64,000 nucleotides of DNA from Escherichia coli (lineage in GTDB: Bacteria > Pseudomonadota > Gammaproteobacteria > Enterobacterales > Enterobacteriaceae). The DNA is taken from the NCBI RefSeq assembly GCF_001677475.2, contig NZ_CP012497.1; one strand, given 5' to 3'. Of this stretch, positions 6,099 to 36,169 are shown one piece after another (within the stretch, counting starts at the first letter, position 1; the number at the start of each line of letters is the position of its first letter). The position numbers and the translations under genes are program-made. The notes beneath the pieces were generated by a model. The model was given only the letters and a program-made list of their open reading frames with translations. It did no database searches and had not been told where the DNA came from.

Positions 6099-6763
6099 AC
6101 TTGCCGGGTACGTCTCCGGCGAGGGCTTCCACCTCCGTATGCTTTTCGGCGCACCGCGCCCTGGCTGCAATTCGGTAACAGGGGATGCACAACCCTGGCT
6201 TCCAGCGTGATTAGCGCCTTCAGCATGACGGGATATACCCGTAAATTCGTGGAACTGTACCCAAAGTGCTGTTAAGCACCGCTGTTACGCTGAAAAGAAA
6301 ACGCAACAGGAAAGGACGCTGACCAACAGATGGCCCCTTCTCGTTCATCTGGTTAATCACACCAGCGCCCTTACCTGTTGTGCCTCCCCGTTCCCTAATA
6401 CACAGACGGGGACACTCTGCGGTCGATTTTTTGACGGGGGACGACTCATACCCCGTGGCATCTGGCTTCTTAGGCCGCTACCATCATCAGATCATCGTTT
6501 GCATTTACTTTAATGGTCAGTTTCTAAACCGCCGCAAAGTCGCTAACTATGACGAAAACCCTGAAAAAAACGCCCACCCGAAGATGGGCAAACTGGAAGC
6601 TCGTAACGCACTTCGGCGTTGCCACTTAGGCGCATGGTCAACCTGGCAACTCGGTGGTTTGTCTGGGAGGACTAGGCCCAGCCATGCTTACCGCCGCGCC
6701 TGTCGCGGCTAACAGCTAAATCGCTCTATAAATCACGATTCATTGAGGCGATATTACACTAAT

Positions 6764-6780
6764 AAATTTATTAGAGCAAT
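6764..6780. promoter_or_regulatory. P1 C1 repressor operator, perfect consensus match, with overlapping promoter for the tRNA-tci-ban operon
   Basis: Reverse complement is ATTGCTCTAATAAATTT (17/17 to the C1 operator consensus); just downstream of the dmt stop and upstream of the tRNAs on the minus strand. Confidence 0.7.
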
Positions 6781-9700: not shown

Positions 9701-10056
9701 TTTTGAACCAACTCTTTTTACTTGTTGTAACCGCCCGAGATGACTGACTACGTAATCGCCAGGGCAAACATCTTCTATTGGTTTATAACCATTTTTACAA
9801 AGAACCATATGCCCCGCGGTAAAACATGGTGTTCCCCGACGAGCACGTCAGGGGATTCGATTTCCCCAGCCAAGACTTTTTTGGCAAGTTTTGTCATGTC
9901 GCCAAGGTTGGCGACATGGGGCCAGCGGAGCGCAAGAACGGCAGATGGAAAAGGCTCGATTTCAGCAAACCACGCCGGACGCATACCCAACGGTTCCCAG
10001 GCAATACTCGCGGCTTCAATTCCACTGCAAACAGATCCATAGCACAGCTCTTTCAC
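6800..10056 (-). CDS. dmt: bifunctional DNA methyltransferase (C5-cytosine domain plus Dam-like N6-adenine domain), intein-containing, frame broken near 9834-9837
   Basis: C5-MTase motifs [40 protein letters not shown]; Dam motifs FVGGGAV and DPPY at the C-terminus; GTG start overlaps the hrdC stop; the N-terminal 77 codons are in a different frame, joined across a C-run. Confidence 0.85.
8804..9826 (-). mobile_element. intein with LAGLIDADG homing-endonuclease domain, inserted at the catalytic Cys of the C5-MTase
   Basis: 341-aa insertion starting CFTAGHMVL and ending ILNGAVVHN followed by Cys+1 of CQAFSIAG; LAGLIDADG-like motifs [13 protein letters not shown] and [11 protein letters not shown]. 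Confidence 0.75.
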
Positions 10057-11306: not shown

Positions 11307-11323
11307 ATATTCATTAGAGCAAT
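11307..11323. promoter_or_regulatory. C1 operator-like site upstream of hrdC-dmt
   Basis: Reverse complement ATTGCTCTAATGAATAT, partial match to the C1 consensus, in an AT-rich intergenic region. Confidence 0.4.
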
Positions 11324-22336: not shown

Positions 22337-22846
22337 ATGGGGCACAATAACACTAAGGGAAACCGTAAATTTATTAAGGGCCGCTATACTGCCAACGCGG
22401 CCAAAGGCGAACGACTGGTATCTTCTGAATTCCAGCTCACTTTTGCAGGCCATGAAGATATCAGCGTACTGGTTCGCACGTCGCAAATCCCTGAAATGAC
22501 CCGCGAGGATGTGGAGGACTATGGCCCGAATGGTGTGAAGTTCAACCAGCACGGTCCAATCCGTAACTCCGGGGAAATCCAGGTCCAGTGCGTGGAGACT
22601 ATCGAAGGCGATATTCTTCAGTTCATTAAAGATCGCATTGCGGCGAAGGACTATGTTGATATCACGATGGCTGCGACCCCTGAATCCAAATCTTCCGGGG
22701 TTAACGCCGTGACAAAAGCTGCTACAACAATTGAAATGTTGGACTGCAAAATCTACAGTGATGCAATCGACTTTAGTACCGAAGATGTGAATGCTGCTGT
22801 GCGCCCGTCACTTCGTATCGTCTACAACTGGATTGAGTGGGATTAA
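22337..22846 (+). CDS. hypothetical tail protein (possibly tube-like)
   Basis: 169-aa ORF, last gene of the structural operon, followed by a terminator. Confidence 0.35.
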   Translation: MGHNNTKGNRKFIKGRYTANAAKGERLVSSEFQLTFAGHEDISVLVRTSQIPEMTREDVEDYGPNGVKFNQHGPIRNSGEIQVQCVETIEGDILQFIKDRIAAKDYVDITMAATPESKSSGVNAVTKAATTIEMLDCKIYSDAIDFSTEDVNAAVRPSLRIVYNWIEWD

Positions 22847-22865
22847 AAGTCATCCCTTGTATTTT

Positions 22866-22890
22866 AAAGCTCCTACGGGAGCTTTTTTGT
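22866..22890 (+). terminator. intrinsic terminator
   Basis: AGCTCC-TACG-GGAGCT hairpin followed by TTTTTT. Confidence 0.6.
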
Positions 22891-22929
22891 GCTTAAATTA
22901 TGCCGGTATAGATAGATTTTGAGCATGTT

Positions 22930-23226
22930 ATGGAAATTGATTTTTCATACTCTCCTGAGACGATAGAAAGAAGATTCGAAATAATTGGATGCATAACTAT
23001 TTCAGATGAGCATTATTGGATTCTCTATGATGCCAATACATGGTTATGTGCCTTAGCAGAATGTCAGGCATCGTTATGTGTAGGGGAGGGGGCTTTTCGA
23101 CATAAGGTGCTGGCTACACTTGAAGTGAACACGTTACGATATTGGTGTGTAGAAATACTTAGTGATAACAAAGAATTGCATTTATTATTGCTGAATAAGT
23201 GTGCTTCTCTGCGCAGAAAAGCATGA
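22930..23226 (+). CDS. hypothetical small protein (accessory island)
   Basis: 98-aa ORF in a low-GC island with no recognisable motif. Confidence 0.3.
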   Translation: MEIDFSYSPETIERRFEIIGCITISDEHYWILYDANTWLCALAECQASLCVGEGAFRHKVLATLEVNTLRYWCVEILSDNKELHLLLLNKCASLRRKA

Positions 23227-23391
23227 GAAAACCCAACCGCTCTCCCGTAATTATCAGAAGAATATGTGCGGAAAGTTATAGCTAGCTATTGAAAAGCTAA
23301 AGTAGATCGGTTAGATTTGCCTTACTCATCTACCATGTGTAGAAAGAGCGATCGAACCCGATACATAGTAATATGTGTCGGGTTCAGCTTT

Positions 23392-23856
23392 TTATGTCCC
23401 AAGTGCTCTTTTTCTGCTTTGTTTGAGTGTTCTGATTTTACTGTCATAGGTTACAACATAGGCTGTTTTGAGAAGCCAATAGTCTCTACGTGCGGATAGC
23501 ACAACAACGTAGTTTTCATACTCATTCCAGATTACCCACTCTTCAGTTGGTCCTCGTCTTTCAGACCAACATGATATATCGCAATGGTTATAATTCCTTA
23601 TCATATGCGCGATCCAGCGAATTCGTTTGCACCGTTCAAGATCGGGTATACGTTCTTCTTCTATTTTTCCCTCTGATACTAAATGCCAAAATCCGAACTC
23701 TTTCCCATCATATTCCGGTGAATAACGTAATCGAACAGGGAGACCCTTAAACGTTATATTAGAGATTAAAATATCTTCTCTGACAACATCATATACATCG
23801 TCTATATACTCTTGCCAACTTCCATTGAAGTACAATAAATCTGGCATTTGAAGCAT
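23392..23856 (-). CDS. hypothetical protein, downstream partner of the DUF3800-like gene (possible Rx5H HEPN-like motif)
   Basis: About 154 aa starting MLQMPDLLYF; ATG overlaps the upstream stop (TGATG); contains RIRWIAHMIRNYNH; low GC. Confidence 0.4.
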   Translation of the reverse strand: MLQMPDLLYFNGSWQEYIDDVYDVVREDILISNITFKGLPVRLRYSPEYDGKEFGFWHLVSEGKIEEERIPDLERCKRIRWIAHMIRNYNHCDISCWSERRGPTEEWVIWNEYENYVVVLSARRDYWLLKTAYVVTYDSKIRTLKQSRKRALGT

Positions 23857-24560
23857 CAGCGAGCCTCCCACACGAAAATATTAAATTTACTTTCTGTTGG
23901 AAGAGTGCTTTTTAGTAACTCCCTGTTTGTATGTGATTTTATCCTGTTTATGACTTGGATTTTTCCCGCGTTGCTATTCATTCCTCGATGAACGTAGCCT
24001 AACGCACCAATGAAAAGATCCGTTAGCTGCAATTGTTGCACTTCATGAGATCGTATATGTTGAATTCTGTTTATCGACTCATGATTGTAATCATAGCGAT
24101 CATTGTGAAGAACCCCTCTTAATTTCTCAATTTTTTCAATACCTAAAGTATCTTTTATATCTAGGTAGATATTGTATGTGTTGTTACTTTCTATTATGTT
24201 TTTTAAGACATAAAAAAACATCTTATAATAGAAAGTATTATGATCTTGATGGAATCGAGCATGGTCCAGTTGCTCTTTATCAGGAACAACAACACCTCTA
24301 AAGCGCAATGCTGGGTTGCTGAAGAAGTAATCTACGACATCTAAGTAAAATTCAACTTTGGACGCAGATACTTTAGTCCACTTGATTTCGAAATCAGGTT
24401 TTAGATTGTGTTTTAATTTTAATTCCTTGATGTCTCTAGCAATTTTTTTTGTGATAGTGCCTGGACACCAAAGCGCACCCAATACCATGACTTTATTATG
24501 ATCATTTAGTAGGTGACAGGATTCATCGCAGAATACATTAAATGTTCTTCGGTTCAACAT
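23856..24560 (-). CDS. DUF3800-like protein (candidate defence/accessory effector)
   Basis: 234-aa ORF with N-terminus NVFCDESCHL, similar to the xIDESG start recalled for DUF3800 proteins; low GC; sits where P1 rlfA/rlfB would be, downstream of repL. Confidence 0.45.
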   Translation of the reverse strand: MLNRRTFNVFCDESCHLLNDHNKVMVLGALWCPGTITKKIARDIKELKLKHNLKPDFEIKWTKVSASKVEFYLDVVDYFFSNPALRFRGVVVPDKEQLDHARFHQDHNTFYYKMFFYVLKNIIESNNTYNIYLDIKDTLGIEKIEKLRGVLHNDRYDYNHESINRIQHIRSHEVQQLQLTDLFIGALGYVHRGMNSNAGKIQVINRIKSHTNRELLKSTLPTESKFNIFVWEAR

Positions 24561-24710
24561 GTTAACTCCACTTATTGTTAGGTAGAATTGTCCGTTAGTT
24601 GTTTATTAATTGCAATAATGGGACGTCCAGTTTTGGCAACTGTGTCCTCTTACCAAGACGCCTATGAGTTTGCCTCATGGCAAACTAGAAGTGTTGAAAG
24701 TATGTATAGT

Positions 24711-24725
24711 TCTAATTAGAGCAAT
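24711..24725. promoter_or_regulatory. C1 operator-like site between repL and the DUF3800-like operon
   Basis: Reverse complement ATTGCTCTAATTAGA, partial match to the C1 consensus. Confidence 0.35.
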
Positions 24726-24728
24726 TCA

Positions 24729-25574
24729 TTAACCTCTGAATCCTGCCGGTATACCCCATTGTTCGTTATCTTTATTTTTGGCTAAAACCTCATTAAGAGC
24801 TTCGTTTACCGTCATGCAATGCGGCAGATTATCGAAGTTTGATATCCCGCCAATATCAGGAGAACGCTTGTTCTTCAGGTAAGCATATTTCCGCGCTGCC
24901 GCCTCTACTTTCTGCTTGAACTCATGTTTTTGAGCGCGTTTTTTGGATAACCGCAGATTGTCAGCCTTTGCTTTTGCCTCAGCGATCCATGAAGTCAGTT
25001 TTTTGAGGCTGGTCGTTCCGGTACCGCCGGAAACTGATCTTTTTGTTTTTTTAATTTGTGACTTCTTATTCTTTATTGCCACGTCATCCTGACAGGGGGA
25101 GGGGGTATCATTTTGACATGGGGGTGTGGATAAAAAATCAAATAAAGCCAATGTGTTAGCGAGAACAGCTTTAACCTTGGTTGCGGCTGAAGAGATCTTT
25201 AATTTGCTTTCAATTAGCGCATTTTTGGCTTGTTGAGCAAAGGCTAAAAAGGATGGTGTAAACCGGTACAGGTTAGCGCGGCGTTCACGGTGATCGCCGA
25301 TAACAATCTCTACCGACAGGATTCCTTTGTTTACAGCTTCACGGAATGCACGAACGACGGTTGATTGGCTATAACCAGTTTCTGCCGCGATCAGGCGGTG
25401 AGGCTTGTGAATGAAGTATTCACTGGTTGTTGCCGCGAGATTTGCACATTGCGACAGGATATGCCCGGCGCTACGGGATAGACCGGAGTGTGTTACAAAG
25501 CAGGCCAATTCATAGCCAGAAAAAGTAAAATCGCTCATCGTTATACAGCTCAGGAAAGTGACTTTAGCCAGCAT
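24729..25574 (-). CDS. repL: lytic replication protein RepL-like
   Basis: 281-aa ORF immediately downstream of kilA as in P1; HTH-like segment GYSQSTVVRAFREAVNKG. Confidence 0.55.
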   Translation of the reverse strand: MLAKVTFLSCITMSDFTFSGYELACFVTHSGLSRSAGHILSQCANLAATTSEYFIHKPHRLIAAETGYSQSTVVRAFREAVNKGILSVEIVIGDHRERRANLYRFTPSFLAFAQQAKNALIESKLKISSAATKVKAVLANTLALFDFLSTPPCQNDTPSPCQDDVAIKNKKSQIKKTKRSVSGGTGTTSLKKLTSWIAEAKAKADNLRLSKKRAQKHEFKQKVEAAARKYAYLKNKRSPDIGGISNFDNLPHCMTVNEALNEVLAKNKDNEQWGIPAGFRG

Positions 25575-25603
25575 TACAATGCTGGTGGTTCTTACTACGT
25601 CTG

Positions 25604-26404
25604 TTAGCGCGTTGCCGCGACAGGTACCAGCACACCAGCATCAAGCAATCGCTTCATCAGCCACTGCTGACCTTTGCCGGTTATACGAGTCGTGAAAGAA
25701 ATCCTGCTTCCATTGCTTGTATCGATCACGGTTTCTTTAAGGGTGAAATACCCATGGGATATGTATTCTTGTTTGGGGACGTTCCTGCGTTCACCGGTTG
25801 CGATCAGAATTCCGTTATCACGCAACCAGGTGAAGAGATAGTTTTGGCCCAGGCCGAGCACTTTGGCATAGTTGCCGATTAGAACCCCGCTGGCGGTAGC
25901 AACGCGTTCGGCGAATTCGACTTTAGGTGCATCCATAAGCATTTTTTGCTCCAGCCGTTGCTTTTGCTCTGCCAGGTCGGCAGCCAAACGGAGAGCTTCA
26001 GGGAGACTCTGCGGAATAGCAGGTTGTAATCTTCCGGCTCGATAGTCGATAAATGTCTGGTTTACCTTCAGCCGAAACGCGGGAGAAATCCAGCCTGCGT
26101 ACTCCACAGCGAGCAATTCATGGGCAAACGTGCCGCCGCCACGGCCTTCGAACGAAACTATGCAATTCTGCATAGTTTCTTTTTCAAGCTCTTCGATGAG
26201 CTGTTTGGCTGACAGCGTTCTTAGCCATTGAGCTGGCGCTTTATGGGCACCGAGTCCGCTCGCTCTGTGTAGAGCATTAAGGTTGTAACGGCCAGCGCGG
26301 TCGGTCGTAATTTCAACACCACAAATAACGGGCAGAGTGGTTGAAGGATCGACATTTTGATGAAGGTTTGATATATTCATATCCGCATTGAATGTTTGTT
26401 GCAT
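25604..26404 (-). CDS. kilA: KilA (KilA-N domain plus antirepressor-type C-terminal domain)
   Basis: 266-aa ORF; KilA-N-like N-terminus (VICGVEITTDRAGRYNLNALHRASG); C-terminal domain paralogous to the Ant C-terminus. Confidence 0.8.
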   Translation of the reverse strand: MQQTFNADMNISNLHQNVDPSTTLPVICGVEITTDRAGRYNLNALHRASGLGAHKAPAQWLRTLSAKQLIEELEKETMQNCIVSFEGRGGGTFAHELLAVEYAGWISPAFRLKVNQTFIDYRAGRLQPAIPQSLPEALRLAADLAEQKQRLEQKMLMDAPKVEFAERVATASGVLIGNYAKVLGLGQNYLFTWLRDNGILIATGERRNVPKQEYISHGYFTLKETVIDTSNGSRISFTTRITGKGQQWLMKRLLDAGVLVPVAATR

Positions 26405-26473: not shown

Positions 26474-26490
26474 AAATTTATTAGAGCAAA
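26474..26490. promoter_or_regulatory. C1 operator (P1 Op53-like) upstream of kilA-repL
   Basis: Reverse complement TTTGCTCTAATAAATTT (16/17 to consensus), about 70 nt upstream of the kilA start. Confidence 0.65.
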
Positions 26491-28163: not shown

Positions 28164-28180
28164 TAAAATAATTAGAGCAA
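28164..28180. promoter_or_regulatory. C1 operator-like site (P1 Op51-like) upstream of the icd-ant leader
   Basis: Reverse complement contains TTGCTCTAATTATT, partial consensus match in an AT-rich region. Confidence 0.4.
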
Positions 28181-28327
28181 CTTGTAACCATGTAAATTAT
28201 TTCCCTGGTAACTAAAATGTATGAGTTTAATTGATATGGGTCAAAGATTTTGACCATTGCATGGTGAAACTTTATGCTACAAAATGTTATTTTAAGGCGT
28301 TTTATCTGTGGCAGGAGATAGTTAATC

Positions 28328-35173: not shown

Positions 35174-36169
35174 TTAACCGGATACGGTGCGCCATGAGCC
35201 ATTGATATAAACCTGAGTTTGTTTGTAATACACGCCGCCGATGTTATCCGAAGAACTTCTTCCCGTTTCCTGAACGTAAATACCTGACAAAACGCAACCT
35301 GAGGGCGCGCGAAACGTCCAGGTGATTTCGTTACCTCCGGGATTGTGAAACACTTCGCTGGTGTATCTGAAATCACGCACAGCACCAGAATCGGTACTGC
35401 TGATGGTGATATCGCTGGTGCCATCAAATGCCACATTATTAATCTTGCGGGCTGTCTGGAGTTTTGTAGCAGTTGCTGCGTTGAAACTGTCTTTTGAGGT
35501 AAAAACCTGTGCCCATTCAGACCATTCCGCCTCGTCATTGTCTCGTCTTGAGCGGATGTAAACCGGGGCATGTGCACCACTTGTGCCACTCCAGCCAATC
35601 AGTAATTCGCCTTCACCTGACGCTGTCCCCCCCTTCAGATGCAGCACATTGCCGTATGGAATGGGATAGCCGTTGTTATACGCTTCGTACATCTGAAGTC
35701 CGGTTGCTCCCTGTGAGCCACCGCTTAATGCTGTTATTCGCCCTGATGATAAAAGGGTGTCCGGTGACAGGCCAATTGCTTTAATAAACTCACTGCCGCT
35801 GTTTTTTCCAAGAATACTGCGCACAAACGCACTGAGCGGCGTTAATGCCATTGTGTCTTCGCCGGTAAAATACGGGAACGTATTATTCTCACCGGTTAAT
35901 CCGGCAATAGCTCCGGCTGAACCACTGTTCGTAATAAACTGTTTTTTCAGGGCTGCCATTATCTGACCGGTATCTGCTTTATCCGGCGTTATTCCGGCTT
36001 CTTCGAGAATTTTCAGTAATTCAGACTGAATAATATTAAACCAGTCTGGTCCTGGATAAGTGGGTGGAATACCGTTCCCGCCTTCGGTGAAATAAAGCGT
36101 TGTTTTGCTTAATTCAGCCGCAACAGGCGGCATAACAGGCACACCCGTATTATTGTCCACGTGAAACAT
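35174..36169 (-). CDS. tail fibre protein (Mu S position)
   Basis: 331-aa ORF after the gp48-like baseplate gene and before a Tfa gene. Confidence 0.65.
   Translation of the reverse strand: MFHVDNNTGVPVMPPVAAELSKTTLYFTEGGNGIPPTYPGPDWFNIIQSELLKILEEAGITPDKADTGQIMAALKKQFITNSGSAGAIAGLTGENNTFPYFTGEDTMALTPLSAFVRSILGKNSGSEFIKAIGLSPDTLLSSGRITALSGGSQGATGLQMYEAYNNGYPIPYGNVLHLKGGTASGEGELLIGWSGTSGAHAPVYIRSRRDNDEAEWSEWAQVFTSKDSFNAATATKLQTARKINNVAFDGTSDITISSTDSGAVRDFRYTSEVFHNPGGNEITWTFRAPSGCVLSGIYVQETGRSSSDNIGGVYYKQTQVYINGSWRTVSG

Follow-up and report, generated by a model that had tools for sequence, protein, structure and literature searches.

What is the function of the two overlapping genes that lie next to repL in P1-like phage-plasmids? 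P1 is heavily used in genetics, yet rlfA and rlfB have stood under a positional name for twenty years. The P1 record (AF234173) says of them only that they are 'possibly associated with lytic replication', and out of the rlf name have since grown database labels that include 'replication protein' and 'oxidoreductase'. In a genome-wide CRISPRi screen, rlfA, rlfB, and the nearby pmgF came out as non-essential (PMC10695390), and a P1vir transcriptome placed rlfA/B among the early genes around repL (10.64898/2025.12.28.696737). Our literature search found no functional study of either gene. We examined the pair in a 64,000-nucleotide stretch of Escherichia coli DNA, referred to below as the window, and in related loci across genome and viral sets.

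Results

The locus and its identity

The two genes lie on the minus strand, rlfA at 23856..24560 (234 aa) and rlfB at 23392..23856 (154 aa, counted from the ATG at 23856-23854). The N-terminus of RlfA is MLNRRTFNVFCDESCHL, and a ribosome-binding site, GGAG, is located 5 nt ahead of its ATG. The preliminary description of this locus had reported two overlapping minus-strand reading frames, and a direct reading of the sequence bears this out: both are present and meet in a TGATG stop/start overlap on the minus strand (23854..23858), in which one base is common to the rlfA TGA stop (23858-23856) and the rlfB ATG. This arrangement implies that translation of rlfB is probably coupled to that of rlfA.

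The pair sits in a low-GC cargo island (22850..24800) that extends from bplB to repL, comprises pmgF, rlfB, rlfA, and a leader, and corresponds to variable region 5 of P1-like phage-plasmids. The composition profile gave a GC content of 0.32-0.42 across ~22850-24800, against ~0.50 on either flank. A terminator scan identified a terminator-like hairpin with a 14-bp stem at 23354..23385, between the convergent rlfB and pmgF. The earlier placement of the pair in a low-GC island between the terminator of the structural operon and repL is in agreement with both results. The hairpin is strong and parts rlfA/rlfB from the convergent pmgF and the structural genes.

The interval 23200-24800 was found to be 98.3% identical at the nucleotide level to phage P1 (1601 bp) and 97.9% identical to P7, where the genes are named rapA and rapB. 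Synteny is as in P1, with bplB and pmgF on one side and repL, kilA, and ant on the other. Given this identity and the same neighbours, the genes are P1 rlfA and rlfB themselves and no replacement cargo. The preliminary description had assigned the pair to the "rlfA/rlfB position", which was right about the locus but treated as a position what are the rlf genes proper.

A partial match to the C1 operator had also been noticed upstream. It corresponds to the annotated P1 operator Orlf (formerly Op55) with one base changed, and AF234173 lists it as the 'monovalent C1-controlled operator Orlf'. In the window it spans 24709..24725 on the minus strand, starts 4 nt past the repL stop codon, and reads ATTGCTCTAATTAGAAC; the P1 version ends in ...TATAAC, a difference of 1 in 17 bases. 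Since only 12 of its 17 positions match the operator consensus, this copy falls outside a 3-mismatch search, which returned 6 other C1 operators in the window, where 0.17 would be expected by chance. A predicted sigma-70 promoter, PrlfA (TTGCAA, 17-nt spacer, GACAAT), was transferred from the P1 annotation to 24587..24615 on the minus strand. Its sequence is identical in the window and P1, and it is weak, scoring below the threshold of our consensus scan. Op55 lies ~95 bp upstream of this predicted promoter. Just past the repL stop and at that distance from PrlfA, it looks better placed to act on read-through from kilA-repL than to occlude the promoter. In P1, the operon would be transcribed from its own weak promoter, and kilA-repL read-through would provide a second source upon the lifting of C1 repression at Op53 and Op55.

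A variable slot in P1-like phage-plasmids

Among the 679 plasmids with a bplB or repL match, 97 (~14%) carry the whole interval. Most other P1-like plasmids carry hokD with a small ORF, Ail/Lom, or IS elements in the same slot, and RCS47 and other Punavirus genomes have different content again; a look for different cargo at this locus had been put forward as a check in the preliminary description. Published comparisons of P1-like phage-plasmids distinguish eight variable low-GC regions, of which rlfA-rlfB-pmgF is one, and describe other ORFs in its place (PMC9603915, PMC6906374). Across 5,426 complete E. coli genomes, rlfAB was found in 120, nearly always on a plasmid. According to the P1 record, PAC vectors carry P1 lytic-replicon fragments whose end is 4 bp upstream of rlfA. 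The two genes are dispensable and patchily distributed among P1-like plasmids. Neither pmgF nor the alternative-cargo ORFs had a PADLOC match.

The pair is PDC-M04

The preliminary description could match the pair to no named system and suggested a comparison with defence-system catalogues. That comparison supplies a name. RlfA matches the PADLOC model PDC-M04A (E 1e-95) and RlfB matches PDC-M04B (E 2e-51), both nearly end to end, and the A and B matches fall on adjacent same-strand genes with a 1-nt overlap. The entity is thus already known: P1 rlfAB is PDC-M04. The PDC set comprises 145 candidates, collected through guilt-by-embedding from within BREX, DISARM, or type I restriction-modification (R-M) loci (Payne et al., 10.1101/2024.01.29.577857). 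Tests of other PDC candidates have included failures (PMC12409345). The papers testing PDC-M systems that we found covered M63 and M05, not M04, and the literature search returned no paper that mentions PDC-M04 and none describing an R-M-embedded pair of an RNase H-like and a RelE-like protein.

Related loci were gathered via RlfA from the genome and viral sets. Retrieved in this way, 78 of 80 species-level genome loci have a B-like ORF directly downstream on the same strand, as do 77 of the 78 viral loci that leave room for one there, which brings A-B adjacency to 155 of 158 loci across phyla. The reverse approach, with divergent RlfB proteins as the starting point, showed a DUF3800 gene upstream in 4 of 4 cases. 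Overlapping A/B junctions are the rule in this family: they dominate at ~160 related loci, most often in the form ATGA, and the pair in the window looks like the coupled two-gene module that had been postulated. Protein A is the more conserved of the two (mean pairwise identity of 52% vs 36% for B), and the identities of A and B covary between loci (r = 0.80). At five loci, A is intact and B is disrupted by a nonsense codon, frameshift, deletion, or insertion, a hint that B may be the costly component, in an asymmetry that is biased because the loci were retrieved through A.

The commonest neighbours of A-B pairs are HsdR, HsdS, and HsdM, as determined by neighbour clustering and annotation and with the hsd identities confirmed. 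We found hsdM, hsdS, or hsdR within 6 genes of the pair at 36 of 77 genome loci (47%), 15 of them strictly embedded, and the usual order at R-M loci is hsdM-hsdS-A-B(-hsdR). Operons of the order hsdM-hsdS-A-B-hsdR occur in Algoriphagus and Gimesia, for example. The embedding by which PDC-M04 is defined is therefore found in the family; it is lacking in the window copy, and the P1 pair has no R-M system adjoining it. Chromosomal pairs inside type I R-M operons, far from phages, are the signature of host-defence cargo. More than half of the loci, P1 included, have no R-M neighbour, which makes dependence on R-M unlikely.

Several individual loci show other company. A Bacteroidota island has the pair beside AbiP2 and pAgo, one locus combines it with MNT/HepT and a second DUF3800 gene, the pair adjoins the integrase in an E. 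coli integrative element, and it forms an opposite-strand moron in a lambdoid prophage. A link to retrons or reverse transcriptases was considered and rejected, given that the sole adjacent reverse transcriptase seen (locus L004) is AbiP2, a separate defence gene.

RlfA resembles an RNase H2-like nuclease

The first protein had been described as DUF3800-like, and Pfam agrees: RlfA matches DUF3800 (PF12686) with an E-value of 5.2e-14, residues 8-189 aligning to positions 1-148 of the 149-position model. Among 134 distinct sequences, D12, E13, D134, and D181 are invariant, with H16, E58, K60, K136, D137, and S171 as further invariant positions. An N-terminal DE and a C-terminal QxxD motif have been described for DUF3800 proteins (PMC7736814, PMC10910872), and RlfA carries both. 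D12-E13 and D181 are kept in 134 of 134 sequences and Q178 in 125 of 134. RlfA has a predicted RNase H2-like fold of the RNase H-like class, in which D12 and E13 fall on strand 1, D134 after a strand, and D181 on a helix. Judged on secondary structure alone, these acidic residues appear to correspond to the DEDD layout of RNase H2, and the modelled protein looks like an active nuclease.

Other searches returned no matches. With the RlfA and RlfB profiles, a sequence search of the PDB gave no significant solved relatives, and NCBIfam holds no family for either protein. An Rfam scan of 22800-25700 by E-value detected no DUF3800-associated RNA motif and no retron ncRNA, and neither was found at gathering thresholds in 8 related loci.

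RlfB resembles a BECR-type endoribonuclease

For RlfB, Pfam returned nothing even at E <= 10, and 101 of its relatives had no match at E <= 0.1, including to the BECR and PBECR models. A homologue search with the RlfB family profile yielded no precomputed Pfam labels. The family comprises 1,807 representative clusters, the members of which are nearly all standalone proteins of 155-180 aa; a few long 'fusions' (P0206, P0240, P0267) are apparently miscalled N-termini and no domain fusions.

The structure model was more informative. RlfB is modelled as an alpha/beta protein with a pLDDT of 96.4, and its best PDB matches all belong to one superfamily: YafQ, RelE, HigB, BrnT, MqsR, YoeB, ParE, and T4 RegB. 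The model also matches the BECR endoribonucleases colicin D and CdiA, and the predicted fold is of the BECR type. Relatives in AFDB at TM ~0.9 are named 'PBECR2/3 domain-containing', 'RlfB', or 'Phage P1-related protein', and the PBECR2/3 names lend independent support to this fold. The active site of PBECR and colicin D consists of a His on the N-terminal helix together with a C-terminal Thr/Ser (Iyer et al., PMC5512222). In RlfB, H58 (helix 54-60) is kept in 128 of 129 sequences, and position 131, on the last strand (127-134), is Thr or Ser in 128 of 129. By residue type and secondary structure, H58 and T/S131 fit this active-site pattern, and RlfB looks like an active nuclease of the colicin D/RelE-like type. 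R69, R75, and R78 are also conserved.

The preliminary description had raised a different reading, in which an Rx5H-like stretch would make RlfB a HEPN protein. The stretch, RIRWIAHMIRNYNH, is present, and in or beside it only R75, R78, and W81 are conserved. Its histidines vary across the 129 sequences, with position 84 being chiefly P, A, K, or W and position 91 chiefly D, H, S, or N. Together with the alpha/beta fold of the RelE/colicin D (BECR) type and the lack of a HEPN profile match, this led us to reject the HEPN reading.

Discussion

We consider it slightly better than even, with a probability of roughly 55%, that rlfA-rlfB is an accessory two-nuclease cargo module that acts in defence or abortive infection in a toxin-antitoxin-like manner and has no replication function. 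RlfB would be a metal-independent BECR endoribonuclease, a growth-arresting effector that cuts tRNA or mRNA. RlfA would be a Mg-dependent RNase H2-like nuclease, held in a fixed ratio to RlfB through translational coupling, that binds and restrains RlfB. It may also be a sensor or a second effector that acts on RNA-DNA hybrids or structured nucleic acid of an invading phage or plasmid. Activation would then shut down translation and abort the infection, and the same toxin-antidote logic could punish loss of the plasmid-prophage. The RNase activity of RlfB, the substrate of RlfA, a complex of the two proteins, their toxin and sensor roles, and an anti-phage phenotype are what we infer from the comparisons above. 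RlfA retains all of its active site, which simple antitoxins seldom do, and the two proteins could have the reverse roles.

A more ambitious form of this proposal, which we offer only tentatively and regard as rather doubtful, holds that RlfAB (PDC-M04) represents an uncharacterised class of immune module. RlfA would detect RNA-DNA hybrids or structured intermediates of invading phages and license a colicin D-like tRNA/mRNA endonuclease. The pair would often be wired to type I R-M as a second line, analogous to PrrC yet unrelated to it, and in P1 it would protect the lysogen. For the puzzling DUF3800 family, which in other settings pairs with retron msDNA, crRNA, or structured RNAs, such a module would provide the protein partner whose logic has been missing.

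Alternatively, RlfAB could be early lytic nucleases for host takeover or counter-defence that degrade host RNAs, or crRNA, retron msDNA, or R-loops, once C1 repression is lifted. The pair comes after kilA-repL and is read in the same direction, with the C1 operator Op55 upstream, and rlfA/B are induced early, alongside repL, in P1vir infection (10.64898/2025.12.28.696737). Phage PBECR RNases have been proposed to target host or CRISPR RNA (Iyer et al., PMC5512222), and other DUF3800 proteins go with retrons, Cas12a2, and structured RNAs. The upstream operator and the early induction with repL would fit a lytic-phase role better than lysogen protection, and we keep open the option that P1 uses the pair in its lytic phase. 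A dedicated takeover function is nonetheless improbable in our view, as nearly half of the chromosomal homologues reside within host type I R-M operons, ~86% of P1-like plasmids do without the pair, it is non-essential for plaque formation (PMC10695390), and Op55, at ~95 bp upstream of the predicted promoter, may only block read-through. Could the pair instead be purely an addiction module, in which RlfA is the antidote to a RelE-like toxin, RlfB, and which stabilises the P1 prophage without any anti-phage role? The RelE/colicin D-like fold of RlfB, the coupled two-gene architecture, the repeated inactivation of B with A intact, and the occupation of the slot by the type I toxin gene hokD in most other P1-like plasmids all speak for it. 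Against this, the supposed antidote, RlfA, is an enzyme of 234 aa whose active site is invariant and which lacks a DNA-binding antitoxin domain, classical relBE differs in gene order and sizes, and P1 already has phd-doc. The frequent embedding in chromosomal R-M loci would also not be accounted for by plasmid stabilisation, and we give pure addiction a small chance.

RNase H processes the ColE1 primer, and the predicted RNase H2-like fold of RlfA recalls that action. By analogy, RlfA could process the oriL transcript or R-loop within repL and thereby provide the primer for lytic replication, assisted by RlfB. The position of the pair directly downstream of repL/oriL, the wording 'possibly associated with lytic replication' in the P1 record, and the co-induction with repL are consistent with such a role. 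However, rlfA/rlfB are absent from most P1-like plasmids in which repL is conserved, the PAC-vector lytic-replicon fragments exclude them, and CRISPRi found both genes non-essential (PMC10695390). The pair also occurs across phyla without repL, mostly beside R-M genes or integrases, and the base composition of the island is foreign. A replication role of rlfA/rlfB is therefore unlikely, and the specific priming scheme is very unlikely; the labels 'possibly associated with lytic replication', 'replication protein', and 'oxidoreductase' have no support in the evidence found here. The preliminary description had allowed that the proteins might prove to be RlfA/RlfB orthologues with a replication-linked function, of which the orthology holds and the replication link is what the evidence argues against.

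What is new here is the link between P1 rlfAB and PDC-M04, the rejection of the HEPN and replication readings, and a model of an RNase H2-like protein paired with a BECR RNase, with candidate catalytic residues named for both. The PDC-M04 identity, the two nuclease-like proteins, and the tie to type I R-M turn an annotation gap into a hypothesis that is testable in E. coli. If the preferred reading of a two-nuclease defence module is true, a mechanistically distinct two-nuclease system would be added to the defence repertoire, DUF3800 would gain a first functional handle, and the bplB-repL interval of P1-like phage-plasmids would be recognised as a site that takes up toxin and defence cargo, such as rlfAB and hokD. 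Even if it is not confirmed, misleading annotations are corrected.

Comparison with known systems

The closest relatives are P1 rlfA/rlfB (rapA/rapB in P7), which are the same genes with the same neighbours (pmgF, repL, and kilA) and the same Op55 operator; the window copy has point differences only, one of them in the operator. Both proteins match the PDC-M04 models, and members of the family occur inside type I R-M operons, in line with how PDCs are defined, but the P1 copy stands alone and unembedded on a phage-plasmid, and PDC-M04 is a candidate without a described mechanism.

PrrC/EcoprrI and RloC likewise place an RNase candidate between or beside hsdS and hsdR, and PrrC is cited as the archetype of an R-M-embedded system (Payne et al., 10.1101/2024.01.29.577857). 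The colicin D-like fold of RlfB suggests a tRNA target, as for the anticodon nucleases. Unlike PrrC, rlfAB has no ABC-ATPase domain and no homology to it, and consists of two proteins, one of which is RNase H-like.

With the RelE/ParE-superfamily toxin-antitoxin systems, colicin D/CdiA, and PBECR proteins, RlfB shares its predicted fold and the His/Thr-Ser pattern; the genes are coupled, and B appears costly. It differs from these proteins in an extra N-terminal helical region and in matching no Pfam BECR model. The partner also differs from those of RelE/ParE toxins and colicin D/CdiA, being a conserved 234-aa RNase H-like enzyme where those toxins have small DNA-binding antitoxins or immunity proteins, and on this ground a classical type II toxin-antitoxin system was rejected.

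Other DUF3800 proteins, namely the effectors of type VII retrons, the Cas12a2-linked TPR-DUF3800 proteins, and those that go with the DUF3800-I to -XI RNA motifs, belong to the same Pfam family as RlfA and have the same RNase H-like fold and DE...QxxD motifs. A type VII retron was rejected for the pair in the window, which is flanked by repL and pmgF, with neither an adjacent reverse transcriptase nor an Rfam match. The RlfA subfamily goes with no reverse transcriptase (apart from AbiP2 at one locus), ncRNA motif, or CRISPR array, and its constant partner is a protein, RlfB.

Loss of RlfB beside an intact RlfA

Among the related loci, which were mostly retrieved through RlfA and are thus biased toward this outcome, several retain an intact rlfA next to a broken rlfB, the gene for the predicted RNase. 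In two unrelated lineages a single-base nonsense codon lies 1–3 codons ahead of the predicted catalytic histidine. In Methylomonas sp. 11b, TGG (W57) has become TAG (L002, 9870-9872, and likewise L003), a stop present in two independent assemblies; in a Phycisphaerae MAG, GGA (G55) has become TGA (L082, 8879-8881). Selection against an RNase that is toxic to its host may explain these codons or, more speculatively, they could allow control through stop-codon read-through. With A again intact, B is frameshifted in an E. coli integrative element (L008, ~9990-10025), cut down to ~30 N-terminal residues in a Sulfurimonas locus (L062, 8663-8788), and split by a ~2.6-kb insertion in a viral contig (L127, 8890-11506).

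RlfB (23392-23856) is called a replication protein in RefSeq P1/P7 and PHROG 16230, and an oxidoreductase in NCBI/UniProt. We found no backing for either label in this analysis, and we regard both as annotation drift.

Defence-island settings

In Algoriphagus pacificus (L004/L005, 5183-18062), two modules are embedded in a single type I R-M operon (hsdMS ... hsdR): a reverse transcriptase, AbiP2, and an RlfAB-like pair. Next come genes for a 325-aa unknown protein, a pAgo of the Piwi type, and a helicase, and the entire region is carried on an integrase-bearing element. A divergent A-B pair also lies in a defence-island context (L175, 6294-13434), where the order is an SMC/AAA-like 1022-aa protein, A-B, the toxin-antitoxin pair MNT/HepT, HsdR, and a second DUF3800 gene that is shorter (207 aa) and has no B partner.

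Cargo between bplB and repL

Other P1-like elements carry alternative cargo in the bplB-repL slot (L177, 927-1509; L010, 2253-4357; L011, 3889-4464). The commonest is hokD with an 81-aa ORF, while RCS47 has a 198-aa unknown ORF and an IS605-family transposase, and Ail/Lom occupies the slot in others. PADLOC gave no match for any unknown ORF among this alternative cargo, nor for pmgF (22930-23226, +), which shares the low-GC island with rlfAB. The two co-vary among P1-like plasmids, but their linkage does not extend outside P1-like elements. Its 'morphogenetic' label is putative, and it was scored non-essential by CRISPRi (PMC10695390).

Regulatory sequences and the link to P1

Between the C1 operator Op55 and the predicted promoter PrlfA, the rlfA leader has a hairpin sequence (GTTTGCC ATGA GGCAAAC; 24668-24685, -) whose 7-bp stem is perfectly paired around a loop of 4 nt. 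This hairpin, also kept in P1, might attenuate or stabilise read-through transcripts coming from repL. At three or fewer mismatches, the C1 operator consensus has six matches in the window against 0.17 expected by chance: an overlapping inverted pair (6753-6780), the kilA/repL operator homologous to Op53 (26474-26490), and three others (11307-11323, 28165-28181, and 35775-35791). These matches confirm that the window carries an immunity circuit of the P1 type. In Kosakonia pseudosacchari, an RlfAB-like pair is followed ~7 kb downstream by Rfam matches to C4 antisense RNA and to isrK (L039, 15860-16087), which indicates that this copy resides in a prophage having a P1/P7-type immunity region.
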